From assembly GCF_028368995.1 (NCBI RefSeq), contig NZ_JAQNDL010000001.1, forward strand, positions 4,256,001 through 4,320,000: DNA of 64,000 nucleotides, read 5' to 3'. This DNA is from Nannocystis bainbridge. Lineage in GTDB: Bacteria > Myxococcota_A > Polyangia > Nannocystales > Nannocystaceae. A program made the translations under genes and the position numbers. Below the pieces are notes generated by a model. That model searched no databases. It was not told the origin of the DNA and worked only from the letters and a program-made list of their open reading frames with translations. Of the stretch, positions 5,007 to 59,122 are shown one piece after another (the first letter of the stretch is position 1; every line of letters starts with the position of its first letter).

Positions 5007-5280
5007 CGACCTGCTCTACGGACAGAGTCTCTATCGAGCGAGCGGCTGACCTTCGGGACAGCCCTCGCGCTTCGCCGACCTGTCCTCGCGGACAGCCTCA
5101 ACCGAGCGAGCGGCGGACCTTCGGGACAGCCCTCGCGTTTCGCCGACCTGTCCTCGCGGACAGCCTCTATCGAGCGAGCGGCGGACCTCCGGGACAGCCC
5201 TCGCACTTCGCCGACCTGTCCTCACGGACAGCCTCTATTGAGCGAGCGGCTGGCCTTCGGGACAGCCCTCGCGCTTCGCC
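5007..5280. repeat. Four tandem ~68-bp intergenic repeats, each with two dyad units
   Basis: Unit CGACCTGTCCTCGCGGACAGCCTCTATCGAGCGAGCGGCGGACCTTCGGGACAGCCCTCGCGCTTCGC; perfect dyads at 5081, 5149, 5217. Lies between convergent genes. Confidence 0.9.
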
Positions 5281-8969: not shown

Positions 8970-9131
8970 CGCGACGGCCGGGTGGCCTCCACCCCTCGCT
9001 CGCGCCGCGTCGCTCGCGCCCCGCAAATCGTCGGCCGGCGCGAGGGGTGAACCGCGGATTGAATTATCTTTAGAACATGTCTTGAACGACAGGGCCGAAA
9101 GACCCTGCCCTCTCGGACTTCTTATTTTGAA

Positions 9132-10304
9132 CTACAGGGCCGTGAGCGCCGCGCGCAGCGCGGCCTCCGGTTGCGTCGTCATGTCCGCGACCGCGACGTC
9201 CGGCTCGACGCCGGCGCCGTCGATCAGGCGGTCCTTCGGCGAGAAGTAGCGCGCGATCGTCAGCGTCAGCACCGAGCCGTCGTCGAGGCCGATGACATCT
9301 TGCACGGTGCCCTTGCCGTAGCTGCGCTCGCCGACCACCTTCGCGCGTCCGTGGTCCTGCAGCGCGCTCGCCAGCAGCTCCGATGCCGAGGCCGAGCGGT
9401 GGTCTTGCAGCACCACGACCTTCGTCGCGTCGTCGGTGGCCGCCAGCGTCGCTCGCTCCTCGCGGAGGATCTGCCCGCCGCGCCCGCGCGTCCGCACCAG
9501 CACGCCCTCGCCGACGAACGTGTCGGCGATCAGCACCGCCTCGCCGACGTCACCGCCCGGATTGCCGCGCACGTCGAGCACCACGCCGCCGATGCCACCG
9601 GCGCCGGCCGAGCGGCGCAGCTCCTTCAACGTGTTGCGCACGCTGTCGGCGACGCCCGAGCGGAACGCACGGATCCGTACATGGGCGAACTTGCGGCCGG
9701 CGTGCTCGAGGAGCGCGCCGCTGACGACCGGGAGCGACTGCCCCGAGAGCACCAGGCGGTGCGCCGTCGGGGCCGGATCGCTGCGCCGCTGCACGGTCAG
9801 GTCGATCGTCTCGCCGTCGCCGCCGAGCAGCAACACGTCGACCTCGGCACGCGACAGCATGAAGGCGACGTCCTGATCGCGAATCTTCAAGATCGAGTCG
9901 CCGGATTGGAGACCGATCTTCTCGGCCGGCGATCCAGGCAACACGGCCGAGACCTCGAGCCGCGCCGGCTTGCGCGAGCCCGGCTCGGCGCGCTGGAGAT
10001 CGACGATCATCCCGGTCGTGCCACCGCGGCTGCGTTGCTTGAGCAGCGTGCGCTCGTCGGCGGTGAGATAGTGACTGTGACGATCGAGCCCGCTGACGAT
10101 CCGCTTCAGCGACTCTGCCAGTACGCGGCTGGGCTCCACCGGGTCGACATAGCGATCGAGGACGGTGCGGAGCGCCTTGCCATAGGCGTCGGTGCCGAGG
10201 TTGTTGCCCGCCTGCGCGCTCGGGAGCGCCGACTGGACGCACCACATTGCCGCGGCGCCGAGCGAGAAGGCCAGGAACGAGCGCCAGCGGGACACGCGGT
10301 TCAT
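9132..10304 (-). CDS. C-terminal processing protease (S41A, PDZ domain)
   Basis: LDRHSHYL, VLPGSPAEKIGLQSGD (PDZ), DVRGNPGG, SASASE, SYGKGTVQ, TIARYFSP. Confidence 0.92.
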   Translation of the reverse strand: MNRVSRWRSFLAFSLGAAAMWCVQSALPSAQAGNNLGTDAYGKALRTVLDRYVDPVEPSRVLAESLKRIVSGLDRHSHYLTADERTLLKQRSRGGTTGMIVDLQRAEPGSRKPARLEVSAVLPGSPAEKIGLQSGDSILKIRDQDVAFMLSRAEVDVLLLGGDGETIDLTVQRRSDPAPTAHRLVLSGQSLPVVSGALLEHAGRKFAHVRIRAFRSGVADSVRNTLKELRRSAGAGGIGGVVLDVRGNPGGDVGEAVLIADTFVGEGVLVRTRGRGGQILREERATLAATDDATKVVVLQDHRSASASELLASALQDHGRAKVVGERSYGKGTVQDVIGLDDGSVLTLTIARYFSPKDRLIDGAGVEPDVAVADMTTQPEAALRAALTAL

Positions 10305-10692: not shown

Positions 10693-11073
10693 TCAACCGC
10701 CTTCGAGCGTGCGCGCGACCTTGACGAGGTCGCGGATCTGCTTGGGCGACAACTGGGCCGAGACCGCGTAGAGCTCGTCGAGCAGCTCGCCCTTGGGACC
10801 GCTCTTCGCCTTGGTGCGGGGCAGCAGGTCGGTCGGCTCACAGCCGAACGCTTGCGCGAGGAGGAGCAGCGACTCGATGCGCGGAGCCTTGTAGCCGAGC
10901 TCGAGCTTGTTGACCGTGGTGACCGTCAGACCTGTCTGTTTGGCCAGCTCTTCGATCGTCAGGTGCGGCCGCCAACCGGTCTCGCCCTCACGCTTGCGGC
11001 GGGTCTTGGGCGGCGGAGTCGCGGTGCGCCACAGCCTGATCCGTCGTCCGATTTCCTGTGCAACTTCGTTCAT
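10693..11073 (-). CDS. XRE-family helix-turn-helix regulator
   Basis: IGRRIRLWR...LTIEELAKQTGLTVTTVNKLELG...PRIESLLLLAQAFGCEPTDLL. Confidence 0.9.
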   Translation of the reverse strand: MNEVAQEIGRRIRLWRTATPPPKTRRKREGETGWRPHLTIEELAKQTGLTVTTVNKLELGYKAPRIESLLLLAQAFGCEPTDLLPRTKAKSGPKGELLDELYAVSAQLSPKQIRDLVKVARTLEGG

Positions 11074-11205
11074 CTTGAGCTCCTCGGTCGGATGTCCCGA
11101 GCCGCATCATGACACAAGTTACCTGGCGCTTCGAACAGTCCGCCGTTGCGGATGCTCACACGGGCTGTCTCATAGGACTTGTCCTTCGGGGCTTGTGAGC
11201 CCCGT

Positions 11206-13563
11206 CTAAAACGCTCCACGAAGGCCCAGGGAGGGTAAAATGTATCTTAGGCCACGCGAGCCGCACGTCGTGTTGCTGACGATCGAGCCTGCTCCCGACA
11301 TCGCTGCATCCGAATTTCCTTGGAGCACGCAAGCGATGACTTCGCTCGAATACGTGGAGTTGAGCACGTCTGCGACGAAGTGCAGGCTCCAAGAGCGGAA
11401 GCGCCAAGTTCGTTCGGCGCGCAGGTCGAGCTGGAAGTAAGCGGGCAAGCGACGGTTGTTACGGTTGTAGAGAAGTGCCTCAGAAGCGGTCTGATCGCCG
11501 ATTTGGACGGTGTACGGGCGACCTGAATGAAAGTGCAGGCGACCGCCGAAGCTCCAGCGATCGCTGATGCGATAGCCGAGCACGACGTTGACGATGTGAC
11601 GCTGATCCCAGCTCGAGGGGGCGCGGCCGCCGTACTCGTACTCGCGGGTCGAGCGCGACAGCGTGTACGCGGCCCACCCGTACGCACGCTGACCGGGCAG
11701 CAGGCGCGCCATCGTCTCGATGCCGTACGACCAACCTTTGGCCGAGATCACGACGTCGTCGATCTCCTGCAGCTTGCCCGACGACAGCGACGCGAGGTCG
11801 TAGTCCTGCAGATTCGAAAGGCGGCCGAGGTAGACGTCTTGGGTGATCGCCAGCTTGTTGCCGAGCACCAGCTCGTAGCCGGCGCTACCCTGAATGTTGC
11901 GCTGCAGGCCGCGCTCGAAGCCGAAGCTCTCGAGCCCCGGGACCGGCACGGGGAAGCTCGGCGGCTGGTGGTAGACGCCGATGTTCTGGCGCAGCGTCCA
12001 GCGCTCGCCGACCTTCTCGCGCACGAGGATCCGCGGGTCGATGCCGAACGCGTGGGTCAGCGTGCGCGCCTGCGGCAGCACCGGCGAGTGACCGACCTGG
12101 GTGTAGAGATCGCCGCGCACGCCGGGGCGGATGTCGAACCGACCCTTGCGCCACAGCAGCTCGGCGTAGAGGCCCGTGGCCGAGACCACGCGGTCGCTGA
12201 ACAGCTGCGTGAGGCTCTCGAGCTGCCAGCCCTCGCCCGCCGTGGCCCCCGTCGTGCCGCGGAAGATCTGGACCTCCTGATCGATGCCGACCCCGAGCTC
12301 CGCGTTGCCGCTCTCACCGACGGGCACGCGCACGTCGACGCGCGGCGCGATCAACCATTCGTTGCTGCGCGTGCGCGACACACCCGTGCGATCGAGGCCG
12401 AGGCCGAGGCTGTAGGTTGCGACGCCGCCGCGCGGCAGCTCGTGGCGGATCTTCTGCACCAGCCGGTAGAACTCGAAGCGCACGAACGGGGTCGGGTTCG
12501 ACTTCTCACCCAGCTCGTCGAAGCTGCCGAGGGCGAACGCGGTGTACGTGGCGCGCTTGCCGAGCGCGTGGTCGAAGCGGGCCTGGTAGTCCCAGAAGCG
12601 CAGCTTGAGGTTGGCCTGGACCAGCGTCAGCACGCCCGCGGTGTAGCTGTAGCGCCCCGCCAGCGTCAGCGAGCCGCGCGCCGGCCCGCGCCGACAGTCC
12701 TCGCGCTTGATCCGACCTGTCCTTTTAGACCTGGCCTTTTTTCGCTGTTCTGCGAGACATGACCGATCGTGCTTGTAGTTGAGCGGGATCTCGACGAGGC
12801 CGCCGGCGTCCGTGAGGCGGATGTCGAACTCCCCGTAGGCGCGGTCGCGGCGAGCGGCGCGCGTGCGGCCCTCGATGATGCCGCTGGCGTAGCGTCCGAG
12901 CCGCACCGGCGCGCCGCTGGCATAAAAGTCGACCTGGTCGATGAAGTACGGGTGGATGACGGACGGCCCGAGCGCGACGTGGAACAGGATCGGCACGCGC
13001 ACGCCGTCGAGGTAGTAACCGGTGTTGCCGGGCGCCGCGCCGCGGACCACCACGTACGGCAGGAAGCCGGCCAGCTGCGACACCCCGGGCAGGCTCCCGA
13101 CCACGCGGAACGGATCGCCGAAGGTCCCCGGCACTGCGCGGATCTCCTCGTCGCGCAGCGTCGTGCTCGACACCGCCACCTCGCGTTGCTGCCGGACCAC
13201 CGTGCGGTACGGGTTGCCGGCGACATCGGGCGCGAGGCGGTACTCGTAGACCAGGTCTTGCCGATCTTCGAGCTTGATACTCACGGACAGGTCCTGAAAG
13301 CCAGCCGCGCGGATGAGCAGCTTGTGCTCGCCGGGCGGCAGCCACAGCTCGAAGTGCCCGGTCTTGTCGGTCTCGGTCGAGTTGTCGTCGCCGAGCAGAC
13401 GCGCGCCTGCCACTGGATCGCGGCTGCCGTACGCCATCACCCGACCGCGCAGGCGCGCTCGCCCGAGCCGCGCGGGCGCGACGGTCGTGGCCTCGGCTGT
13501 CTCGTTCGACGCGCTCGCCGGCACCGACGCTGGCGCGAGCGCGAGGAGGAGAGCGAGCACCAC
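11206..13563 (-). CDS. TonB-dependent receptor with N-terminal carboxypeptidase-regulatory-like domain
   Basis: Signal peptide; plug motifs VPGTFGDPFRVVGSLPGV and VVRGAAPGNTGYYLDG; barrel end RLPAYFQLDLR...LPSLGLRGAF. Confidence 0.9.
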   Translation of the reverse strand: MVLALLLALAPASVPASASNETAEATTVAPARLGRARLRGRVMAYGSRDPVAGARLLGDDNSTETDKTGHFELWLPPGEHKLLIRAAGFQDLSVSIKLEDRQDLVYEYRLAPDVAGNPYRTVVRQQREVAVSSTTLRDEEIRAVPGTFGDPFRVVGSLPGVSQLAGFLPYVVVRGAAPGNTGYYLDGVRVPILFHVALGPSVIHPYFIDQVDFYASGAPVRLGRYASGIIEGRTRAARRDRAYGEFDIRLTDAGGLVEIPLNYKHDRSCLAEQRKKARSKRTGRIKREDCRRGPARGSLTLAGRYSYTAGVLTLVQANLKLRFWDYQARFDHALGKRATYTAFALGSFDELGEKSNPTPFVRFEFYRLVQKIRHELPRGGVATYSLGLGLDRTGVSRTRSNEWLIAPRVDVRVPVGESGNAELGVGIDQEVQIFRGTTGATAGEGWQLESLTQLFSDRVVSATGLYAELLWRKGRFDIRPGVRGDLYTQVGHSPVLPQARTLTHAFGIDPRILVREKVGERWTLRQNIGVYHQPPSFPVPVPGLESFGFERGLQRNIQGSAGYELVLGNKLAITQDVYLGRLSNLQDYDLASLSSGKLQEIDDVVISAKGWSYGIETMARLLPGQRAYGWAAYTLSRSTREYEYGGRAPSSWDQRHIVNVVLGYRISDRWSFGGRLHFHSGRPYTVQIGDQTASEALLYNRNNRRLPAYFQLDLRAERTWRFRSWSLHFVADVLNSTYSSEVIACVLQGNSDAAMSGAGSIVSNTTCGSRGLRYILPSLGLRGAF

Positions 13564-17233: not shown

Positions 17234-17414
17234 GCCGCTCGCTCTGGCCAGCCGGGGCACGAGCACGGGCGTGACGGGCGAGGGATTCTCCGTGGCCCGC
17301 TCATCGCGACGGTCTGCACTCCACCACGATGACGCTCGTCGCGCTCGTGCTCGTGCTCCGACCGGCCGGAGCAATGTCCTTCGCGACATGTCCCGAAGAA
17401 CACTTTAAAGAAAA

Positions 17415-18842: not shown

Positions 18843-18924
18843 CCCGATCAAGGGGTAGCCCCGCGAGCTGTCTCTCGGCGCATGCTCCGAAGGGCATGTC
18901 CTTCGGAGCATGTCCCTTCGGCCA

Positions 18925-34301: not shown

Positions 34302-35203
34302 CAATCACCCCCCCCGTCGGCCCCGCCGACCTCGGCCCCGCCCTCGTTGCCGCCGCCCTCGGCCGGCAGCGCCGGCTCGTCGCCGTCCTCGACCGGGGCC
34401 ACGTCGCGCTTGCGCTTGCCGTCGACGGCCCGTCGCCGCTCGAGGATCTTGGCCCGCGCCGCGGCCCGCTCGCGCCAGCTCGTGGTGTCGACCTCGACGA
34501 AGCTGCCGGCCGGCAGCGGCGCGAACCCGTAGCGGGCGCGGATCTGGTCGGGAAGCTGCGCGTGCGGGGTGGTCGCGCAGTCGAAGCCCTTGAGGTCCTC
34601 CTTGTAGAGCTTGAGCTCGAACGGGTCGAAGCCCATGGTCTCGATCGCCTTCGACGGGTGCGGCACCTTCGTCCACATCTTCGTGAAGTTGACCCGCACC
34701 GGCGGCTCGCCGCCGTGGGTGCGCGCCCACTCGCGGCAGACCCACGCGGCGTACGGCGACTGGTAGCGCTCCTGCTCGAGCAGCCGCCGGTTGATCTTGC
34801 CCATGCGGTCGTAGAAGAAGTACGGGTAGTCGCGCCGGCCGTAGATGTCGTGCAGCAGGTCGATCTCCTCGCCGGCCTGCGTCACCACCCGCACCTGCAA
34901 GAACATGTTGGTGCGGTGCGGGTTGGGGGCGAACATCGCCCAGCTCTGCACGCTCGAGGTGGCCCGCATGTAGGCGCCGGAGCGCAGCAGCTCGGCCAGC
35001 CGGCGGTTGAACCGCTCCGACAGCCCGCTCGCCGGGGTGGTGTGCTGCAGCAGCGCGACCGTGTGATAGAGGACGAACAGGCTGACCAGCAGCGCCGCCC
35101 ACCCGCGGTAGGCCCACGGCCCGTCGCCCACGTCCTCGGCCGGCGGCGCCCGCAGCAGCGCGTCGGCCAGCCTCGTCGTGCCGTCGTGGGATGGCCGACT
35201 CAC
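34301..35203 (-). CDS. SdpA/DUF5819-like single-TM partner of HTTM proteins
   Basis: GAGGAG before GTG 35203; TM helix then QSWAMFAPNP, YDRMGKINRR, AAWVCREW. Confidence 0.75.
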   Translation of the reverse strand: MSRPSHDGTTRLADALLRAPPAEDVGDGPWAYRGWAALLVSLFVLYHTVALLQHTTPASGLSERFNRRLAELLRSGAYMRATSSVQSWAMFAPNPHRTNMFLQVRVVTQAGEEIDLLHDIYGRRDYPYFFYDRMGKINRRLLEQERYQSPYAAWVCREWARTHGGEPPVRVNFTKMWTKVPHPSKAIETMGFDPFELKLYKEDLKGFDCATTPHAQLPDQIRARYGFAPLPAGSFVEVDTTSWRERAAARAKILERRRAVDGKRKRDVAPVEDGDEPALPAEGGGNEGGAEVGGADGGGD

Positions 35204-35356
35204 GGGACATGCTCCTCGGGACATGTCGCTTTGGCCATCAATACAAGGCACCCCACGTGTCCCTCATGACATGTCCCATGCGCCAGCTTCAAAGATAACG
35301 AGGTTCCCACGCCGGACGGCCCCGGCGGCCCGGCGCCGTGCGGGGCCAGCCGCGGT

Positions 35357-49774: not shown

Positions 49775-50974
49775 GTGCGTGGACTGTTGACCCTGGTGGC
49801 CGGCGGATGGCTGGTGAACGCCGGCTGCGACGCCTCTGCGGGCCCTCGCGCGCGCGCTGCCGAGCAGCCGCCCCGGGTCGCGTCCGCGGGGCCTCCGGCG
49901 TCCTTGCGGGTTGCAGCTACACCGGACGGCGGGGCGTCCGCAGACACCGATCGGGGCCAGCCGCCAGCCCCCACCGGGCCCGCGCCGCTGTCACCCGAGC
50001 AGCGGGCGACGCTGGAGCGGGTGCGGGCCGAGCGGATCTTCGTCACCCCGCCCCTGCACTTCACGGCCAGCAACGAATACCGCCACGCGCTGTGGTTCCC
50101 GTTCGTGCAAGGGCTCGGCGGGGCCTACGTCGGCGTGGCCTCCGACCAGAACTACACGCTGCTGGCGGCGGCCCGCAGCGAGGTCGCGTTCATCGTCGAC
50201 ATCGACCGCAAGGTCGTCGACCTCCACCAGATCTACGCGGCGCTGATCGCCGCGGCCCCCGAGCCCGCGGGGTTCCTGGCGCTGTTCGAGCCCGGAGCCG
50301 GCGAGGCCGCGCGCCAGGCGATCGCGGCCGGGCTGGCGCACCAGCCTCGCGACCAGCAGGGCCGCGTGCAGGCGCTGTTCGCGGGCGAACGCGCGGCGCT
50401 GGCGGTGTACCTGCAACGGGTGCGCGACCAACAGATCGGCTCGTGGCTGGCCGATCCCGCGGCATACACCTATGTCCGCGAGATGTTCGCGGCCGGACGG
50501 ATCCGCGTGCTCCAGGGCAACCTCACCGGCAAAACGACGATGGCCGACATCGCCGCGGCGACTCGCGCGCTCGCGTTGCCGGTGACGGTCCTCTACCTCA
50601 GCAACGCCGAAGACTATCTGTTCTACACCGACCGCTTCGCCGCCAACGTGGCAGCGCTGCCGAGCTCCCCGCGCAGCGCGCTGCTGCGGACGATCCACGA
50701 CCGCTTCCCGACGTGGGAGAGCGCCGGCGAGGGCGATCCGCGCTGGCACTACCAGGTCCAGGCGCTCCCTGACTTCCAGCGAAGACTCGGGGACCGCTCC
50801 CACGGCCGCAACCAAGATCGTGCTTCGATGTTGACGACGGCGGTCGCCGTCGGCGCAGTCGAGCGCAAGTCTCGCGGGCTGAGCACGATCGCCCTGAACA
50901 CCACAGAACCGGCCGGAGAAGGAGATCTCCTCATCGCGCGCGCGGACGAGGCCGCAGCGCCACGCCGAGACTGA
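49775..50974 (+). CDS. Hypothetical lipoprotein, possibly a SAM-methyltransferase-like fold
   Basis: GTG 49775, NAGC lipobox-like; ASNE, GGAYVGVASDQNY, LYLSNAEDY. Confidence 0.65.
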   Translation: MRGLLTLVAGGWLVNAGCDASAGPRARAAEQPPRVASAGPPASLRVAATPDGGASADTDRGQPPAPTGPAPLSPEQRATLERVRAERIFVTPPLHFTASNEYRHALWFPFVQGLGGAYVGVASDQNYTLLAAARSEVAFIVDIDRKVVDLHQIYAALIAAAPEPAGFLALFEPGAGEAARQAIAAGLAHQPRDQQGRVQALFAGERAALAVYLQRVRDQQIGSWLADPAAYTYVREMFAAGRIRVLQGNLTGKTTMADIAAATRALALPVTVLYLSNAEDYLFYTDRFAANVAALPSSPRSALLRTIHDRFPTWESAGEGDPRWHYQVQALPDFQRRLGDRSHGRNQDRASMLTTAVAVGAVERKSRGLSTIALNTTEPAGEGDLLIARADEAAAPRRD

Positions 50975-51032: not shown

Positions 51033-51116
51033 GGGCCCGATAGACATGTTTAAAGAATCATGTCTTTAAAGACATGTCTGATTCGACATGCCCTTCACAA
51101 CATGTCCCATAGACGT
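51033..51116. repeat. Array of six 14-bp dyad units in exact phase
   Basis: Units start at 51033, 51047, 51061 (TGTCTTTAAAGACA), 51075 (TGTCTGATTCGACA), 51089, 51103. Confidence 0.85.
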
Positions 51117-51443
51117 TGCGCCGTCGCATCCGCAGGTACGACCTCGCGGCTCGCCGCGTCGGACGCGTCCTGCAGCCGGTCTCCAGCGGTTGCTGTCGTG
51201 CTGACGGAGAGACGCCAGCGGACTGGGTGCCCGGCTTCATGCTGCGCTCGGCCGCCCCCAGCACGACGTCGACCGCGGGCAGCAGCACCGCTTCGACCTG
51301 CTCGATCGGCTGCTGACGCTCGGTCGCTGCGGCTCGAGCTTCGCGCCGCCAGCCGCGGAGATCGACATGGACCCTGACGCTTGCCGCCTGGCCTTCGAGG
51401 CATGTCCCTTCGGGCATGCCCCCGCATCCGCCGCGCGAGCGCG

Positions 51444-54400
51444 TCACACCGCCAGCACGACGTCGGCCGCGGGGAACAGCAGCACCGCCTCGACCTGCTT
51501 GCGCTCGAGGCCGGCCTGCTCGGCCGCGGCCGCGCGCCAGGCGGTCACCGCGTCGCGGTAGAGGCGGGCCCGCTCCTCGGCCTCGGACTGCTTCTCGATG
51601 TTGTCGAGGCAGAGGCCGTAGACGACGGCCTTTTGCACATGGCCCTCGAGACCTGTCGCATCGACCTCGTCGAGGCCGAGCTCGAGGTTGGGGTCGAGGT
51701 CGAGCACGAGCCGGGCGATCTCGCCGGTCTGGAGGGCGCCGCTGCCGTCGAGGCGGGCGAACGGGACCTGCCGCTCGACCCGCGTCGCGGACGGGTCGCG
51801 CGCGCCGCGACTCAGCGCGGCGCGCAGGTTGGGGCCCTCGAGCACGCGCAAGAACTCCTGCACCCGCGCCCGCACCCACGTCTCGTCGCGGCTCGGCGCG
51901 GCGGCCCGCACGATCGCCTCGAGGCTCGGGGTGCTCGGGTTGAACTCCTCGAACCAGGCGATCTCGGCGAACAGGGCCCGCATCGCCGCGCCCCAGTGCG
52001 ACAGCGGCGTGTCCGCCAGGTGCATGTGGTCGGCGACGGTGCGGCCCGGGTCCTGCGCGAGCACGGCGGCGCGCACCAGCGGGCCCTGCGAGGGCAAGAA
52101 GCTGAGGCTCGTCGGCTCGCTCACCGGCACCGCCGCCGGCCGCTCACCCGCTCCCGCCGGCGCCGACTCGAGGTGCGGCGCCGAGGGGTCGACGGGGCCG
52201 GGCTCGACGTAGGCGTGCGGCGCCAGCCAGCTGCGGTCGCCGTGCTCGAACAGCACGCTGTCGGGCTCGACCGGGCCCTCGTGCAGCGCGTGGATCACCA
52301 GCGCCGCGGCCTTGGCCGGCGCGCCGCGGCTGCCCTCGCTCGGCGGGTCGACGAGGATGAACAGGCCCTCGCGCGCGCGCGTGACGGCGACGTAGAGGAG
52401 GCACAGGCTCTCGTGCGCCAGCCGGTCGATGTGCTGCTCGAAGATCGGGCGCAGGTCGTCGAACTGCTGCCACATGTCCTTCGAGACATGGCGGGCGATC
52501 CGGATCACCGGGCCGGCGTCGCCGTCGCGCTCGTAGACGACCTTGAGCGTGCGCGTCGAGGCCAGCTCGGTCTCGAGCTCGGGCAGGATGACGATGTCGA
52601 ACTCGAGGCCCTTCGACTGGTGGACCGTCATCACCTGGACCGCGGAGGCGGCCGGGTCGGCGACGGGCCGCGTCTCGACCATGGCGACGAACTGGTCGCA
52701 GCGGAGGGTCCGCCGCTCGTCCCACACCTGCGCCAGCTGGATGAGCTGCATGCAGCGCCGGTACTGCCGCTCGTCGACCTGGCCGGCGATCGCCCGCACC
52801 CACTGCTGCAGGGTCGGCGCCAGGCCGTCGCTGGCGATCTGCCGCCGCACCCGCGCGGCGACGCGGCGCTGCAGGTTGCGGTCGTCCTTGTCGAAGCCGA
52901 CCACCTGTCCCAAAGGACTGGCGAACACGTTGAAGCCGGCGATCGAGTGATCGGGGTGGTCGGCGAGGCGCAGCAGGTCGAGGATCGCGTTGACCGCGGG
53001 GGCGTCGGTGAGCGGGCCGCCGCCGCGGCCGGTCGCGGGGATCTTGAGGCGGGTCGGGCCGAGCTCGTAGAGGACGCGGCCGACGGCGCCGTTGGTCCGC
53101 AGCAGCACGCCGATCGTCTTGCCGGGGTGGCGGTGGTACAGCTCGGCGACCAGCGCCGCGGCCTCCTGCAGGCGCAGCTGCTGCCGCTTGCCCTGGTCCT
53201 CGCAGCGGCCGACCGCGCGCACCTGCACGTAGCCGGGCAGCTTGCGGGTGGTGGTGTGCTGCTCGAACTCGGAGTCCCAGCGGCGCGCGGCGTACGGGTA
53301 GCGCAGCAGCGTCGGGTTGTCCTTGAGGTTGGTGAAGATCTTGTTGACGACCTCGATCACCGCCGGCGACGAGCGGTAGCTGGTGGCGAGGGTCTCCTTG
53401 TGCAGCACCTGACCACCTGGCCGATGGAGCAGGTCGTCGAGACGCGAGAGGATCTCGGGGCAGGCGTTGCGCCAGCCGTAGATCGACTGCTTGACGTCGC
53501 CGACGCAGAAGAAGCTGCGCTCGTCGGTCGAGTACGACACGGTCTCGTCGACGATCGGCCGCAGGGCGTTCCACTGCTGGATGCTGGTGTCCTGCATCTC
53601 GTCGAGCAGGACGTGGCGCAGGCGGGCGTCGATGCGGAAGCAGATCTCGTCGAGGTGGCCGGAGAGGTCGGCCTGCGCCAGCGCGACGGTGAGGTCGGCG
53701 AAGGTGATGACCTTGTGCTCGCGCTTGACCCGGCGATAACAGCTGTCGAACAGCTGCAGCAGGGTGCAGGTGGCCCGGGTCTGCTCGATGACGCGGCGGC
53801 GGAACACCCCGCGCGCGTGGCCGAGCAGGCGCCGGTAGGCGAACACGGTGCCCGGCGCGATCGGCTTGTTGTAGTAGACGAGCTCGTTCTCGGCGACCTT
53901 CTTGGCCAGACCGGTGGTGAAGAACTCCATCCAGTCGTCGGAGCTGCCGCCGCGGCACTGCTCGGCGCGCTGACAGTCCTTCTGGTGGGCCTCGATGCCG
54001 CGCTTGCCGAGGTCGGTCGGCACGGCGAAGCGCAGGGTCGCGATCGCGTCGTCGAGCTCCTGCTCGCCGAGCGTCGGCTCGGGCGCGATCGCCTCCCACG
54101 CGGAGGTGTCGTGGGCCTCGCGGTAGAGGTCGTAGAGCGAGCTGACGGTGTTGTCGATGGTGTCGGTGACGGCCCGCTCGGAGCTGCCCTCGGTCAGCGA
54201 CGCCAGCAGCTCGATGATCGCCTCGGTGTCGCCCTCCTCGAGCATGAGCCCGATCGCCTCGCGGCGCAGGCGGAAGGCCTCGTCCTCGTCGACGATCCGG
54301 GCGTCGGTCGGCAGCCCGAGCTCGAGCGAGAAGCAGCGCACGATCGTGCCGAAGAAGCTGTCGAGCGTGCGGATCTGCAGGCGGTGGAGGTTGTTGGCCA

Positions 54401-56174
54401 GGCTGGCCAGGAGGTCGAGCACGCGGGTGCGCGCGAGGTCGCGGTGGAGCCGGTGGCCGAGCTCCTCGCGCTTGGCGCCGTCGTCGGCGGCCTCGGCGAG
54501 GGTGCGCAAGATTCGGTCGCGGATCTCGCCGGCAGCGGCGCGGGTGAAGGTGCTGGCGAGGATCGAGTAGGGGAAGGCGCCCCGACTCAAGATCTGCAAG
54601 TAGCGGTTGGTGAGCTGGTAGGTCTTGCCCGAGCCGGCCGAGGCCAGGATCCGCATGTGCTCGAGCCGGTGCCCGCCGGTGAGCCGCGGGTCGGGCGGGA
54701 GGTCGAACGCGGCCTCGGCGACCCGCTCGGCCTCGGCGATCACGGCGAGGACGTCCTGCCGCGGGGCGGGCGGCATGTCCTCGGGGACATACGACCTGAC
54801 CTTGGCACCAGGTCGCTTGCGCGCGTGCGGCGGGTCGAGCACGACGGCCTCGGCGAGGGCGATCGCGTCGGCGAGGTTGTCGGCCGGGCCCGGGAGATCG
54901 GTGGCGTGCGCGAGGGCGTCGATCTCGTCCGGGACGAAGCGCCGGGTCCGTGGCGGCTCGACGGCGACCTGGCTCGCGTGCAGCTCGCCGTCCCCGGGCT
55001 CGAGCCACTCGGCGTCGGCGGGCGAGATGTCCTCTTGAACAGGCTCGGACGGGACTTGGTCGCGGCTGTCCTCGCGGACAGGTCGCTCGACGAGGGTCTC
55101 TGCGCGACGCGAGGGCTCGCCGGGGGCGTTGCGGCCCGTCGCGCCCGCGCGGTCGGCTCCTTCGCGGTCGTCCGGGCCACCGTCCGAAAGGACAGGCGAT
55201 TCGTCGCGCGCACGGTCGCTGACGGCGCGCGCGCGCCTGCTCGAAGCGACGGAGGCCTCGACTTCGGCGACGCGCGCTGGCGCTTCCCCGTCCAGGACAT
55301 GGAACGTCCTGTCCGAAGAGACATGTACCGAGCTCACGCTCTGTCTCTGCTCCTCGGCGGCGGCGTCGCTCTCGAGGACAGGCTCATCGGACAGGGCATC
55401 GTTCGCGTGGCGAGATGTCCTGACCGACGGGACAGGCGCGCCTGCCCGCGGCTCACTCGCGCCGCGCGCCATGTCCTTCGGGACAGGTCTTCCCGCCTGT
55501 GGCTCACTCGCACCGCGCGCCTCACCGCGCGCCTCACCGCTCGTCGGCGGCTCACTCGCGCTGCGAGGCTTCCTGTCCGCGAGGCCAGGTTCTCTCGTCG
55601 GCGGCTCGCTCACACCACGGGACCTCCTGTCCGTCGGGACAGGTCCGCTCGCCTGCGCCTCACTCGCGCCGCGAGGCTTCCTGTCCGCAGGGCCAGGTTC
55701 TCTCGTCGGCGGCTCGCTCGCGCTGCGAGGCTTCCTGTCCGTGGGGACAGGTCCGCCCGCCTGCGTCTCGCTCGCGCCGCCGGGCCTCCTGTTCGAAGGA
55801 GTAGAGGACGCCTCGCCCATCCGGTCGCCGGTGTCGCGGGCTCTCCTGTCCGTCGGGACAGGTCCGCCCGCTTCGGTCTCGCTCGCACCGCCGGCTTTCG
55901 AGATCGTCGGCGGCTCGCCGCGGTCGCCCTTGCGGCCGCGCCGGCGCGGCTCGGCGGCGGGCTCCGGTTGCGGGGCCGGGCGCGCGGCTGCTTCGGCGCT
56001 GCGGGCGAAGGCGCCGGCGACCGCGTTGAAAAGGTCGCGCGCGGGGCGGGCGACCTGACGCGGGGCGGTGCGGTTGCGCCTGGCCTTGCGGACAGGTGGT
56101 GGCGCCGCCGCGGCATCGGGCTCGCCGAACAGCCACAGCGACTCCGGGCGCGGCGGCTTCTCGGGGTCGCTCAC
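51444..56174 (-). CDS. addA: AddA/UvrD-type helicase subunit with long N-terminal extension and degenerate C-terminal nuclease
   Basis: ASAGSGKT, TFTRAAAGE, LDEMQDT, VGDVKQSIYGWR, SYRSS, MTVHQSKGLEF, LLYVAVTRA; GTGA overlap with the upstream stop. Confidence 0.88.
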   Translation of the reverse strand: MSDPEKPPRPESLWLFGEPDAAAAPPPVRKARRNRTAPRQVARPARDLFNAVAGAFARSAEAAARPAPQPEPAAEPRRRGRKGDRGEPPTISKAGGASETEAGGPVPTDRRARDTGDRMGEASSTPSNRRPGGASETQAGGPVPTDRKPRSASEPPTREPGPADRKPRGASEAQASGPVPTDRRSRGVSEPPTREPGLADRKPRSASEPPTSGEARGEARGASEPQAGRPVPKDMARGASEPRAGAPVPSVRTSRHANDALSDEPVLESDAAAEEQRQSVSSVHVSSDRTFHVLDGEAPARVAEVEASVASSRRARAVSDRARDESPVLSDGGPDDREGADRAGATGRNAPGEPSRRAETLVERPVREDSRDQVPSEPVQEDISPADAEWLEPGDGELHASQVAVEPPRTRRFVPDEIDALAHATDLPGPADNLADAIALAEAVVLDPPHARKRPGAKVRSYVPEDMPPAPRQDVLAVIAEAERVAEAAFDLPPDPRLTGGHRLEHMRILASAGSGKTYQLTNRYLQILSRGAFPYSILASTFTRAAAGEIRDRILRTLAEAADDGAKREELGHRLHRDLARTRVLDLLASLANNLHRLQIRTLDSFFGTIVRCFSLELGLPTDARIVDEDEAFRLRREAIGLMLEEGDTEAIIELLASLTEGSSERAVTDTIDNTVSSLYDLYREAHDTSAWEAIAPEPTLGEQELDDAIATLRFAVPTDLGKRGIEAHQKDCQRAEQCRGGSSDDWMEFFTTGLAKKVAENELVYYNKPIAPGTVFAYRRLLGHARGVFRRRVIEQTRATCTLLQLFDSCYRRVKREHKVITFADLTVALAQADLSGHLDEICFRIDARLRHVLLDEMQDTSIQQWNALRPIVDETVSYSTDERSFFCVGDVKQSIYGWRNACPEILSRLDDLLHRPGGQVLHKETLATSYRSSPAVIEVVNKIFTNLKDNPTLLRYPYAARRWDSEFEQHTTTRKLPGYVQVRAVGRCEDQGKRQQLRLQEAAALVAELYHRHPGKTIGVLLRTNGAVGRVLYELGPTRLKIPATGRGGGPLTDAPAVNAILDLLRLADHPDHSIAGFNVFASPLGQVVGFDKDDRNLQRRVAARVRRQIASDGLAPTLQQWVRAIAGQVDERQYRRCMQLIQLAQVWDERRTLRCDQFVAMVETRPVADPAASAVQVMTVHQSKGLEFDIVILPELETELASTRTLKVVYERDGDAGPVIRIARHVSKDMWQQFDDLRPIFEQHIDRLAHESLCLLYVAVTRAREGLFILVDPPSEGSRGAPAKAAALVIHALHEGPVEPDSVLFEHGDRSWLAPHAYVEPGPVDPSAPHLESAPAGAGERPAAVPVSEPTSLSFLPSQGPLVRAAVLAQDPGRTVADHMHLADTPLSHWGAAMRALFAEIAWFEEFNPSTPSLEAIVRAAAPSRDETWVRARVQEFLRVLEGPNLRAALSRGARDPSATRVERQVPFARLDGSGALQTGEIARLVLDLDPNLELGLDEVDATGLEGHVQKAVVYGLCLDNIEKQSEAEERARLYRDAVTAWRAAAAEQAGLERKQVEAVLLFPAADVVLAV
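55500..55890. repeat. 54-bp (18-aa) tandem repeats inside the AddA N-terminal extension
   Basis: Dyad-type units at 55574, 55628, 55682, 55736 (54-bp period) and 55847; peptides such as GPVPTDRKPRSASEPPTRE. Confidence 0.8.
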
Positions 56175-59122
56175 GCCTCGGCCTCCAGGTCGTCGGCGCC
56201 GCCGAACACGCGGGTCTGGCAGATGTTGGCGAAGTCGTCCTGGTAGCGGGCGGCGAAGTCGCCCATGATGTCGAAGCGGCCGGCGCGGATGCTGCGGACG
56301 ATGTCCCGCGCGGTGCCGACGGCGTCATCGAGGTCGGCCGGGGTCCAGCGGGCGATGTGCAGCGCCTCCTGCTCCGGCTTCTTCGGCAAGTTCATGTAAG
56401 CCAGCTGGACCGGCCCGGAGTAGCCGTGCTGGGCCGCGAGGTGGTGGTAGAGCGGCAGCTGCAGGTCGCTCCACTGGCTCGCCGAACCCCGGGCCGCCCG
56501 GTGCGTCTTGTCGGGGCTGTGGCCCGACTCGCTGGTCTTGTAGTCGATGATCATCCACGAGCCGTCGCGGACGTTTTGATCGATGCGATCGATCTTCCCC
56601 TTGATCCGCATCTTCGGCTGATCGGGAATTTGCAGGTAGGTCTCCTCGGGCAGCTCGAACTCGCAGCGGCGGATCTTCCAGCCGTCGGCGCGGCGGCGGG
56701 CCTGGTGCGGCGCGAACGAGGCGAGGCGCTGGCGGAGGCGCGAGATCTGGATCCGGATCGCCGGCAGCGGGCGGGCGCCGAAGGTCTCGCGCGCGCGGTC
56801 GTCGAGCACGCCGTCGAGGTACTTGGCGATCGCCTCGGGGTCGACGCTGTCGGCGATCGCCGGGTCCTCGCCGAAGCGCTGCAGGACGTCGTGGGTCAGG
56901 TTGCCGAACTGCAGCGCGTCGAGCTCGACGGCGCTGTCGTCGATCAGGCGCAGGCGGCGGACGTACTTGAGGTAGTAGCGGAACGGGCAGCGCAGGTAGA
57001 GGCCGAACTCGGTGACCGTCATGGCCGGCGGCTCGATCGGCGGGCCGGGTTCGGGGATCCGGAAGCCGGAGGTCGCGCTAGAGGGCGGGGCGCCGTACGG
57101 CAGGGCCCAGCGGCGGGCATGGTTCGGATCGCAGAGCCGGAGGATCCGCGCCGGCAGCAGCTCGAGGTCGCCGGCGAGCAGCAAGCGCGAAGGCGTGAGC
57201 GGCTCGCCGTCGGCGGCCTGGCGCCCGGCGATGAAGGTGCACTTGACGCGGCTGCGGCGGATCGCCTCGATGAGGTAGGCGTCGCGGGCGTAGCGGCGGC
57301 CGTTGCTGAGCACGCCGAGGTGCTCACGCAGGCCGTCGGGCAGGAACGCGTCGGCGGTGACGGCCTGCGGCACGGCGCCGTCGTTGCAACCGGCGAGCAC
57401 CAGCACCGGCGCCGGATCGTGGTGCAGCTCGAGCCAGCCGAGCATCTCGATCTGGCCCGAGCGCGGGTCCTCGGGCACGCGCAGGCCGGCAAGCTGCGCG
57501 AGCACGAGGCGCAGCGCGGTCGGGCCGTCGACGTCGGGCTGGAGCCCGGGCGCGGCGCCGGTCAGGTTGCCGAGGTTCTTGGCGATCTCGATGCAGGTGT
57601 TGGCGACCCGCTGGTCGCTGATCGCCCGCGCGTGGACGTCGAGGTGGCCGTAGGCGTTGCGCAGGACCTCGAGGATCGGCTCGAACCACTGCGTCAGCGG
57701 CCGGCGGTCGCCCACCAGCGGCGAGTACAGCTTGGCGACGATGTCGTGGAGGATCTGCATCCGCCGCGCGACCTTCTCGTCGCCGAGCCACGCGCTACCG
57801 AGGTTGTCCTGCAGGTGCTCGGTGTGATAGCGGTCGAGCACCGTCAACCACTCGACGATCGTGTGGTCGTCGGCGGCGACGTCGTCCTTGCTGTCCTTTG
57901 GGACCTGTCCTTCGAGACCTGCGCTGAAGGGCACGTCCTCGGGGACCTGTTCGGCGGGCTTGGCCTCGGCCCACTCGGGCGCGGGGCCGGCCGGCGGCTT
58001 GGCCTTGCCGAGCAGGCGGCGGACGAAGCCCTCGACGTCGGGGTGGCGGATCAGCGCGGCGAACGGGAAGAACCGCGAGTCGCGGACCCACTCGAGCCCG
58101 GCCTGCAGCAGGCGGAACGGGCGGCCGTGGAGGGCCAGGAGGCCGCGCGGGTCGTGCACGCCGATGTCGGCCCACTGCCCGGCCTGGGTCATGGTCGGCG
58201 CGAGCTTCTCGTCGCCGAGGCCGATCGTGACCTCTTCGGGGCGGTAGGCGCCGCCGAGGTCGGCGAGGCAGCGGATGACGGCCTGGGCCTGGTCGGCGGG
58301 GCGGTCGGCGATGATGAGCTGGTCGTCGGGGATCTCGATCGGGCGACCGGACCAGAAGTTGCGCTCGACGCAGCCGTCGGCGTCGAAGCCGGAATAGAGC
58401 TGCTCGGGGGCGTGGATCAGGGCGGTGGCGCGGTCGCCGTAGGCGCGGACGATGGCGCGGTGGACCCGGGCGAGGTCGACGACGCCGACGAGCACGAGCT
58501 GGTGGTCCGGGTCGACCGGGGTGGCGCCGTCGACGAGGGCGGCGATGACCTCGCGCCGGCGCTCGTGCGGGCAGACGCGGTCCTCGCGGCCGAGGCGCTC
58601 GCGGTAGCGGCCCTCGAGGCGCTCGAGCACGGCCCAGCGCTCGGCCTCGCGGTCCATGCTCATGCGGGCGGCGACGCGGGCGACGTCGCGGAGCGCCAGC
58701 AGCTCGGCCGACAGCTCGTCGACGACGCCGGCGACGGTGCCCGCGAGCTCGTGCCAGGCCGGCCAGTCGTAGAAGTCGGGGCGGGTCGGCAGCAGCGGCG
58801 AGATGTGCTCGGGGCGGGCCTCCCGCAGCACGTGCATCCACGCGAGGGTGCACTCCAGGGGCGAAGCGGTGCGGGCGTCGCCGGGGACCAGCAGCTCGGC
58901 GAGGGCCCCAGGGGTCAGGACCTGCGGCGGGACCAGGCGGAGGCCGCGCTCGGCGCACTGGCGGAGCAGCAGGTGCAGCAGGACCCGGCCGGCGCGGGCG
59001 CCAGGCAGCACGCAGCGGACCGCCCGCAGGTCGCAGCGACGACCTTCGGCGTGGCGCTCGATGAGCCAGGCGGCGGCCGCGGGGAGCAGCGGCCCTTGCC
59101 AGTCCAACCATTGACGCTGCAT
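56171..59122 (-). CDS. addB: AddB-like subunit with C-terminal PD-(D/E)xK nuclease
   Basis: VLPGARAGRVL, YLRCPFRYYL, FGNLTHDVL, GKIDRID, IIDYKT, QLPLY. Confidence 0.85.
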   Translation of the reverse strand: MQRQWLDWQGPLLPAAAAWLIERHAEGRRCDLRAVRCVLPGARAGRVLLHLLLRQCAERGLRLVPPQVLTPGALAELLVPGDARTASPLECTLAWMHVLREARPEHISPLLPTRPDFYDWPAWHELAGTVAGVVDELSAELLALRDVARVAARMSMDREAERWAVLERLEGRYRERLGREDRVCPHERRREVIAALVDGATPVDPDHQLVLVGVVDLARVHRAIVRAYGDRATALIHAPEQLYSGFDADGCVERNFWSGRPIEIPDDQLIIADRPADQAQAVIRCLADLGGAYRPEEVTIGLGDEKLAPTMTQAGQWADIGVHDPRGLLALHGRPFRLLQAGLEWVRDSRFFPFAALIRHPDVEGFVRRLLGKAKPPAGPAPEWAEAKPAEQVPEDVPFSAGLEGQVPKDSKDDVAADDHTIVEWLTVLDRYHTEHLQDNLGSAWLGDEKVARRMQILHDIVAKLYSPLVGDRRPLTQWFEPILEVLRNAYGHLDVHARAISDQRVANTCIEIAKNLGNLTGAAPGLQPDVDGPTALRLVLAQLAGLRVPEDPRSGQIEMLGWLELHHDPAPVLVLAGCNDGAVPQAVTADAFLPDGLREHLGVLSNGRRYARDAYLIEAIRRSRVKCTFIAGRQAADGEPLTPSRLLLAGDLELLPARILRLCDPNHARRWALPYGAPPSSATSGFRIPEPGPPIEPPAMTVTEFGLYLRCPFRYYLKYVRRLRLIDDSAVELDALQFGNLTHDVLQRFGEDPAIADSVDPEAIAKYLDGVLDDRARETFGARPLPAIRIQISRLRQRLASFAPHQARRRADGWKIRRCEFELPEETYLQIPDQPKMRIKGKIDRIDQNVRDGSWMIIDYKTSESGHSPDKTHRAARGSASQWSDLQLPLYHHLAAQHGYSGPVQLAYMNLPKKPEQEALHIARWTPADLDDAVGTARDIVRSIRAGRFDIMGDFAARYQDDFANICQTRVFGGADDLEAEA

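Follow-up and report, generated by a model that had tools for sequence, protein, structure and literature searches.

A selected 14-bp lattice of dyads behind the genes of Nannocystis, with a candidate XRE-family reader and a testable termination hypothesis

Results

Gene ends in Nannocystis carry rows of a 14-bp dyad placed head to tail in exact register. This gene-end lattice is real and selected, and it is undescribed: a literature search, with most subscription papers outside its coverage, returned no description of the motif, of the XRE protein presented below or of the loss of Rho in the Nannocystaceae. The lattice now has a named candidate protein and a testable termination hypothesis. 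We propose that dimers of the XRE protein bind side by side along the arrays, cooperatively, and thereby block polymerases from both directions behind genes, a model to which we give, as a whole, a probability of roughly 0.4.

The window analysed is a stretch of 64,000 nucleotides (G000:C1:4256001-4320000). G000, as we call the genome that carries it, belongs to a soil myxobacterium and comprises 11.0 Mb in five contigs with 71.5% GC; dnaA lies 33 kb past the window end. Genes were called with our own dicodon model (8269 genes in G000), in which stops are reliable and starts less so, and units were scored with a matrix built on neighbouring units. The family sample consisted of 73 genomes: 23 are motif-bearing (11 from g1, the genus of G000, and 5 and 7 from the sister genera g2 and g4) and 50, from 14 genera, are motif-free.

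The dyad and its phase

The dyad TGYCY-N4-RGRCA was found in 4173 strict copies genome-wide, compared with 41–172 copies for each of 12 other spacers (0–12 bp). There are 683 distinct strict 14-mers, and TTCG/CGAA is the most frequent spacer. Altogether, about 15,000 units are present at even density on all five contigs, with no bias towards origin or terminus. Strict tandem pairs at 14 bp number 275, against 0 for the reversed pattern. An earlier note on this DNA had expected a genome-wide autocorrelation with peaks at 14, 28 and 42 bp; all three appeared and the series went on, the distances of strict pairs peaking at 14 (275), 28 (161), 42 (145), 56 (80) and 70 bp (29). Among strict intergenic units, 28.4% had a neighbour at ±14 bp, 18.8% at 28, 14.5% at 42, 9.0% at 56 and 3.6% at 70 bp, whereas out-of-phase neighbours were nearly absent (0–0.1% at 15–20 bp, at most 1.3% at other offsets).

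Three units, equal to 42 bp, had been given a special role in the earlier note, but the signal falls smoothly from 14 through 28 and 42 to 56 bp and the preferred array length is five to six units. Intergenic arrays of one to seven units number 2312, 776, 420, 156, 321, 202 and 58, respectively. Geometric decay would give 227, 123, 67 and 36 arrays of four, five, six and seven units, so the lengths are not geometric; the mode holds when half-sites are counted (peak 10–13). As only 99 of 2424 junction palindromes stand alone, the unit and not the junction is the site. On its left flank the unit favours (A/G)C(A/C), mirrored on its right flank, and a neighbouring unit ends in the same way.

The note had also argued that recent slippage does not explain the rows, and this was confirmed: among 3212 pairs of neighbouring units, 4.3% have identical spacers (expected, 1.2%), thus slippage accounts for a small minority only. 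Stepwise addition of units, which it had allowed for, found no support as an enzymatic process, nor did transposition: of 861 long arrays, 13 have a near-identical copy elsewhere, and shuffled arrays give the same nearest-neighbour median. The same counts bear on a reading of the rows as selfish or enzyme-written repeats without host function (REPIN- or MITE-like, retron-derived or produced by slippage). Although the gaps turn over fast, a few arrays have repeated units, and msDNA-like repeats are reported for Nannocystis exedens in titles cited in PMC6868368, such repeats would have to accommodate 683 distinct 14-mers, thousands of in-gene units in all three frames, the length mode and the adjacency to stop codons, and we consider them very improbable indeed.

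Arrays in the window

All eight stretches listed in the earlier note were found where it had placed them and in exact 14-bp register; some unit numbers had to be corrected. The array at 51033..51116, credited with six units, consists of five (5.5–18.7 bits) and the left half only of a sixth (2.2 bits). It lies in a convergent gap, 58 bp behind the stop of the left partner, a plus-strand DUF7790 gene (50021..50974; PF25046, E 1.2e-83; start by our own gene caller). The right partner is a minus-strand UvrD/REP-family helicase gene (51444..56174; PF00580, PF13361) with several single units inside, and two units and a half (51389..51430) are located 13–27 bp behind its stop. Judged from its sequence, the helicase may be AddA-like, and it forms with a PD-(D/E)XK nuclease a gene pair (51444-59122) that would be AddAB-like. 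A degenerate copy of the 3' end of the helicase gene lies in the intergenic region at 51250-51330, and genome G001 has extra copies at the same place.

The claim of four units was correct for 18869..18924, where four good units in a convergent gap run up to 18925, the stop of a minus-strand gene; at 9064..9119, in a convergent gap 12 bp from the stop at 9132, three units are good and one, in register, is weak (−0.4). The doubles starting at 11166, 17375, 35210 and 35258 are good. Two tandem gaps hold such rows, one the double 17375..17402 and the other (35196..35285) a triple (35196-35237) and a double (35258-35285) that are mutually out of register. The double at 11166..11193 is upstream of the XRE gene and also 12 bp behind the stop of a TonB-dependent receptor gene, whose last codons contain a single unit (11241..11254); the double may thus serve as a gene-end array, as an operator or in both ways.

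Several local repeats were seen as well. Downstream of a minus-strand tRNA-Arg gene (1034-1107), the stretch 460-870 contains a repeat of about 60 bp five times over, with one double unit per copy, and then two singles. Single units at regular 34/68-bp spacing (5047-5264) and at about 54-bp spacing (55421-55860) are local repeats with one unit each. Elsewhere in the genome, one Fur-like sequence is present in three copies near contig ends (G000:C1:4523238, C1:4524714 and C2:3020724), possibly an assembly duplication.

Position at gene ends

Genome-wide, an array of at least two units was present in 685 of 1413 convergent gaps, 770 of 4022 tandem gaps and 142 of 1535 divergent gaps. For arrays of at least four units, the median distance to the nearest stop is 4 bp in convergent gaps; in tandem gaps the medians are 10 bp for the upstream stop and 165 bp for the following start. 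Of 750 long arrays, 86 start exactly on a stop codon. When gaps of at least 100 bp were considered, an array of at least three units was found within 40 bp of 430 of 1778 convergent (24%) and 272 of 2677 tandem (10%) gene ends, and within the same distance of 7 of 2698 gene starts (0.3%) and, in tandem gaps, 51 of 2677 (1.9%). About three quarters of convergent gene ends are without an array of at least three units. The earlier note placed the longest arrays between convergent genes, which is true of 51033, 18869 and 9064, but the main positional fact is stop-codon adjacency, seen in tandem gaps also, and not convergence as such.

Thousands of units lie within genes, in all three frames. In the top 100 genes by high-expression codon use, which are also the most constrained, the density of in-gene sites is 3.1 per 100 kb (3 in 98 kb), and in deciles 1–9 of codon use it is 26–53 per 100 kb.

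The distribution could be architectural. The same protein lattice, its reader acting as a sequence-specific nucleoid protein, might insulate supercoiling or anchor domains by its rows, which would gather behind stop codons since promoters and coding sequence tolerate rows least. The even spread of about 15,000 units without origin or terminus bias and the fast turnover of convergent gaps agree with this, and a precedent exists in Myxococcus, whose nucleoid protein CdbA is sequence-specific and has little effect on transcription (PMC7156744). Tolerance alone, however, leaves three facts unexplained: the closeness of arrays to the stop (median, 4 bp), their asymmetry between the 3' and 5' sides of tandem gaps and the mode of five to six units. 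We regard the architectural reading as a strong rival to the barrier model, if rather unlikely on the whole.

Conservation between species

The gap orthologous to that of the 51033 array carries five units of different sequence in both G010 and G005. Across 400-kb syntenic stretches, long arrays were shared at orthologous convergent gaps in 7 of 18 cases for G000/G010, 11 of 21 for G000/G005 and 7 of 13 for G010/G005, the denominator being convergent gaps with a long array in either genome. In shared arrays the TG/CA positions diverged by 3–11%, a low value partly built in by the scoring matrix, compared with 30–59% for other positions and 13–18% for four-fold sites. Convergent gaps turn over fast, with a median alignable cover between species of 0–0.13 versus 0.8–1.0 in other gaps. 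As far as these alignments tell, the lattice property is kept, or rebuilt, while the letters drift.

The form TGTCT-WWWW-AGACA (at most one mismatch) has 72–156 copies in g2, 10–40 in g4 and 0–2 in the 50 genomes of 14 other genera, and phased doubles in the sister genera number 17, 12, 8 and 6 versus 0 in the control. The motif-bearing genera g1, g2 and g4 form one clade, with a support of 99 in a quick tree of 25 RpoB rows (5 outgroup loci of 30 were omitted, and three motif-free genera had no RpoB match). In public records, 64 of 80 among the matches listed for the strict double unit came from Nannocystis/Nannocystaceae; viral contigs gave one match. Selection for cooperative binding had been suggested in the earlier note. 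Selection of the phase stands, given the near-absence of out-of-phase neighbours, the non-geometric lengths (321 and 202 arrays of five and six units, against 123 and 67), the arrays of new sequence at orthologous gaps and the phased doubles in two sister genera; it fits cooperative protein binding, which itself is a prediction.

Related dyads were seen elsewhere. The G011 sample (L139-L148) has over-represented dyads of its own, TGTA-N2-TACA and TGCA-N2-TGCA. Mesorhizobium records (L269, L280, L287, L299, L311) have a near-perfect inverted repeat, about 50 bp long, with a double unit in its middle; some of these repeats fall inside reading frames, and they are a different element. In five alphaproteobacterial genomes (L352-L368), the Nannocystis dyad occurs in promoters as a small number of A/T-rich doubles; these precede luxR-type genes and an XRE gene with a sigma-54-like promoter, and form a small regulon.

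Reading as DNA or RNA

The units are very probably protein sites on double-stranded DNA. Covariation between half-sites is weak in every pairing scheme (ratios 0.7–1.8). On the sense strand, U.G and C.A mismatches stand at 426:123 in leading-strand genes and 334:434 in lagging-strand genes; because this asymmetry follows replication and not transcription, the signal is read as double-stranded DNA. Unit centres are 52% A+T in GC-rich genomes. By analogy, the pattern is the signature of a dimeric protein, which would contact five outer bases on each side and read the A/T-rich centre by shape, as 434 repressor does on its 14-bp operator with 5+5 contacted bases and four central ones recognised by indirect readout (PMC1636474).

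An RNA-level element resembling REP or TRIT, in which hairpins formed by the transcribed rows would terminate transcription or shield 3' ends, seems quite improbable. It is true that 300 arrays folded better (mean, −38 kcal/mol) than base shuffles (−22 kcal/mol), that TTCG/CGAA is the top spacer and that TRIT likewise sits at stop codons (PMC3152330), but shuffling the order or orientation of units barely altered the folding (−36.6 and −36.9 kcal/mol), and pairing does not need a strict 14-bp phase with nearly empty offsets at 15–20 bp. Covariation is weak, the wobble bias tracks replication, and stable tetraloops show no sense preference (TTCG, i.e. UUCG, 48 sense versus 46 antisense; GNRA, 44:42). 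When Rfam models were run against the window, the sole match was the tRNA and the arrays stayed unmatched. Single units behind stops have a stem extended by at least 4 bp in 12–16% of cases versus 5–8% for shuffled partners, so that some units act, or arose, as hairpins.

Candidate reader

The best candidate for coating the rows is an XRE/Cro-C1 helix-turn-helix protein of 126 aa, encoded on the minus strand at 10693..11073; it and its paralogue (C3:1091678-1092052) probably bind the units. It matches PF01381 (HTH_3) with 47.7 bits (cut-off 23; E 1.6e-12) and contains the five-helix HTH_3 domain. The route to it led from the alphaproteobacterial doubles before an XRE gene to three small G000 XRE genes with upstream sites, one of them family-wide (70/73) and the other two being the paralogues; the alphaproteobacterial XRE protein, only 23% identical to that of the window, was for this reason used as a hint only. 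The predicted structure (pLDDT 83, pTM 0.59) has a five-helix XRE domain and two C-terminal helices; the protein has a basic insertion of 21 residues, and a basic loop appears between helices 1 and 2 of the model. A fold search gave SinR, C.AhdI, C.BclI, BldD and DdrO as the nearest, while a sequence search for a solved structure matched none. The homodimer prediction scored 0.25 against a mark of 0.42. The recognition helix TVTTVNK is invariant in 29 aligned sequences.

Orthologues (E ≤ 4.8e-55) were found in 11 of 11 g1 genomes (two copies each), 4 of 5 in g2, 5 of 7 in g4 and 0 of 50 others, that is, in 20 of 23 motif-bearing and no motif-free family genomes, the same split as for the motif; six of the 50 yielded weak matches only (E ≥ 1.7e-5). 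The three motif-bearing genomes without the gene are 60–67% complete, two of them with a contig end inside the upstream gene and the third without that gene, and these misses look like assembly gaps. A control XRE gene at C1:4374331 was found in 70 of 73 family genomes. Because the motif-bearing genera form one clade, the co-occurrence of motif and XRE gene is a single event, and further genes may have been gained on the same branch. In a search of five genomes for motif and XRE together in an independent lineage, four had 4–26 sites and no homologue. The fifth, G098, had 1175 sites and no XRE homologue, but its matches are those of G061, and in both genomes the contig breaks off at the same place ahead of the gene. 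Distant full-length homologues are P0036-P0043.

A single unit (11124..11137) covers a putative −35 region 64 bp upstream of the XRE start, and a unit at a similar position precedes the paralogue and some g4 orthologues. An upstream 7-bit site was present for 25 of 25 homologues examined, but also for 25–43% of genes, and part of these are gene-end sites of the upstream gene. Two or more such sites precede 9 of 9 g2/g4 orthologues compared with 3–6% of genes in 200-kb samples; these sites are orthologous and not independent, some of them score low, and at 11166 the double counts as a gene-end array too. By a codon-use proxy the XRE gene is at the 96.8th percentile and the paralogue, on a shortened gene call, at the 41st. 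Cross-genus identity of the XRE protein is 68–79%; identity of at least 70% was also seen in 12 of 79 and 16 of 110 sampled genes, so it is high but not unique.

That another DNA-binding protein reads the lattice, and that the XRE gene merely arose on the same branch or is a target, appears unlikely. Motif and XRE gene do share one branch, only eight candidate families were examined, and similar doubles in the five alphaproteobacterial genomes precede luxR-type genes besides the 23%-identical XRE gene. The PadR operator of B. subtilis, C-N-T-G-N10-C-A-N-G with two dimers per 28 bp in the crystal, has a geometry that the unit flanks match (PMC5728393). PadR, however, was unmatched in G000 and 6 of 10 congeners, RHH_1 was not found in G000, and the Fis-like, winged-helix, histone and second XRE families are all family-wide.

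The rejected candidates are as follows. PadR, a winged-helix protein with one local operator, gave no match over cut-off in G000 and is scattered, also in motif-free genera; RHH_1 is missing from G000; and the second XRE gene (C1:4374331) occurs in 70 of 73 family genomes. Stand-alone Fis-like (HTH_8) genes, of 66–82 aa (L009-L017), have 11 matches in G000 and are expanded in motif-bearing genera (3–15 per genome in 13 motif-bearing versus 1–3 in 12 motif-free), but their recognition helix is the same in both groups, and we keep them as a minor possibility. A family with an N-terminal helical, oligomer-type domain, an A/P/K-rich linker and a C-terminal winged helix (L006:1527-2075, L005:1510-2145, L167, L168, L007) occurs in 23 of 24 genomes of the family but in none of 16 others, and is thus family-wide; it has several paralogues with strong high-expression codon use, its two main members are unmatched in Pfam, and its build recalls nucleoid proteins of the H-NS/Rok type. 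A bacterial histone of 65 aa (G000:C1:1377114-1377311, L248), with a four-unit array in the convergent gap behind its gene, is near-identical across the whole family. A CdbA homologue, present in G000, was dropped from the list of readers as well. The neighbours of the longest arrays and of promoter arrays include no common regulator.

Transcription termination

No rho gene over cut-off was detected in any of 25 family genomes, those of 12–15 Mb included, whereas 12 of 16 other genomes of the class have one, and none was found in G000 by tblastn either; mfd is present in G000. U-tailed terminators occur in 8–12% of convergent gaps, and they are not rarer beside arrays (12% in gaps with arrays, 8% without). 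Strong stems were found in 11% of gaps with and 27% without arrays at 40–100 free bases, and in 29% and 30% above 100; in motif-free genera they were seen in 1 of 10 and 2 of 15 convergent gaps. The arrays do not clearly exclude hairpins.

With no rho found, mfd present and U-tailed terminators scarce, a barrier role is favoured, and given a protein reader we would put it slightly ahead of an even chance. The unit would be an operator of 14 bp, built 5-4-5 (TGTCC-N4-GGACA, or TGTCT-WWWW-AGACA in its best form from the sister genera). A helix-turn-helix dimer with two-fold symmetry would read it as double-stranded DNA, the likeliest candidates being the clade-specific XRE protein and the paralogue of that protein. 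Adjacent dimers would meet across the CA|TG junction, so that only the 14-bp step is favoured and weak units are tolerated in rows. C.Esp1396I shows cooperative binding of dimers spaced 15 bp apart, with a weak site occupied only if its neighbour is strong (PMC2504287). Degenerate units within exact rows need cooperativity of this kind, and for the rows studied here we infer it. Five or six dimers (70–84 bp) would make a sheath directly behind the stop codon, which in this Rho-less lineage would act as a two-way barrier. With a ribosome pushing it, RNA polymerase would pass the single in-gene sites; once the ribosome leaves at the stop, the polymerase would stall in the row and then be released, for example by Mfd. 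Mfd releases polymerase stalled at roadblocks. Where the barrier begins at the stop, polymerase would be held up close to the stop codon, and the model needs the presumed push for this; co-directional ribosomes can promote roadblock bypass (PMC13082048).

The barrier model has to live with the fact that most gene ends are without a long array. The loss of Rho spans the 14 motif-free genera too and is older than the motif, therefore the lattice is not needed for life without Rho, and the 12 motif-free genomes among the 25 must end transcripts in some other way. It is conceivable, but doubtful, that Nannocystis recruited an ordinary XRE repressor after the family had lost Rho and made of it a genome-wide, DNA-encoded functional substitute for Rho, in which rows of five to six dimers would stop ribosome-less polymerases and single in-gene sites would damp untranslated or antisense transcription. 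Relating the mode of five to six units to the Rho hexamer was rejected, as there is no rho.

Discussion

Bacterial termination is taught as intrinsic, Rho-dependent or caused by Mfd at chance obstacles. The question addressed here is how large GC-rich genomes without Rho end their transcripts. In a survey of 12 myxobacteria, Haliangium ochraceum was the sole Rho-less one, with the reasons for the loss given as unknown (PMC11347177). If the barrier model is true, a programmed protein lattice at gene ends is a further termination route; even if the role is architectural, a testable protein has been named for the commonest sequence signal of the genus. The host bacteria are culturable and rich in natural products, and the array is a short, length-tunable, two-way part.

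By analogy, the lattice would work like a tandem XRE operator multiplied chromosome-wide, perhaps like the Reb1/mTERF roadblocks. It resembles the operator of 434 repressor in its 14-bp 5-4-5 dyad with an indirectly read centre (PMC1636474), and would resemble those of C.Esp1396I and C.AhdI in its cooperative adjacent dimers (PMC2504287), the candidate XRE protein having that fold. XRE/Cro-C1 operators are few, lie at promoters and bind two dimers 15 bp apart, whereas the lattice has thousands of units in rows of five to six at 14 bp behind genes. DNA-bound proteins end transcription at Reb1/TTF-I and mTERF sites and at local bacterial roadblocks released by Mfd; our model likewise has such a protein behind the gene, where its role is inferred. 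To our knowledge, a genome-wide bacterial counterpart of these protein-roadblock terminators has no precedent.

With REP/BIME/REPIN elements, which are short palindromes in hundreds of copies behind genes and enriched between convergent genes, the lattice shares all these features. It differs in that it has no near-identical copy families (13/861) and no long conserved covarying stem, tiles at exactly 14 bp, has many coding copies and shows a strand bias that tracks replication. Mycobacterium, the host of TRIT, has Rho. TRIT is, similarly, a genus-restricted two-way palindrome tied to stop codons, for which its authors suspected a binding factor; it consists of 147 copies of one RNA stem (PMC3152330), while the lattice is degenerate DNA in a family without detectable rho. 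The arrays show neither the order-dependent stem-loop nor the U tail or Rfam model of an intrinsic terminator or TRIT, and Rho utilisation sites do not fit units that are strand-symmetric relative to transcription in a genome with no rho.

MatP/matS, SlmA, Noc and RacA/ram have many sites, tied to origin or terminus. The lattice, on the contrary, has the same density all along the chromosome and is bound up with gene ends, and a concentration at origin or terminus of the matS, parS or ram type is not seen on its five evenly dense contigs. It is like CdbA in having many chromosomal sites in and between genes, though CdbA reads a direct repeat (PMC7156744). G000 also has a ribbon-helix-helix protein (C3:1086862-1087071, L018) with weak RHH Pfam matches. 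From its sequence likeness, we take L018 to be CdbA-like.
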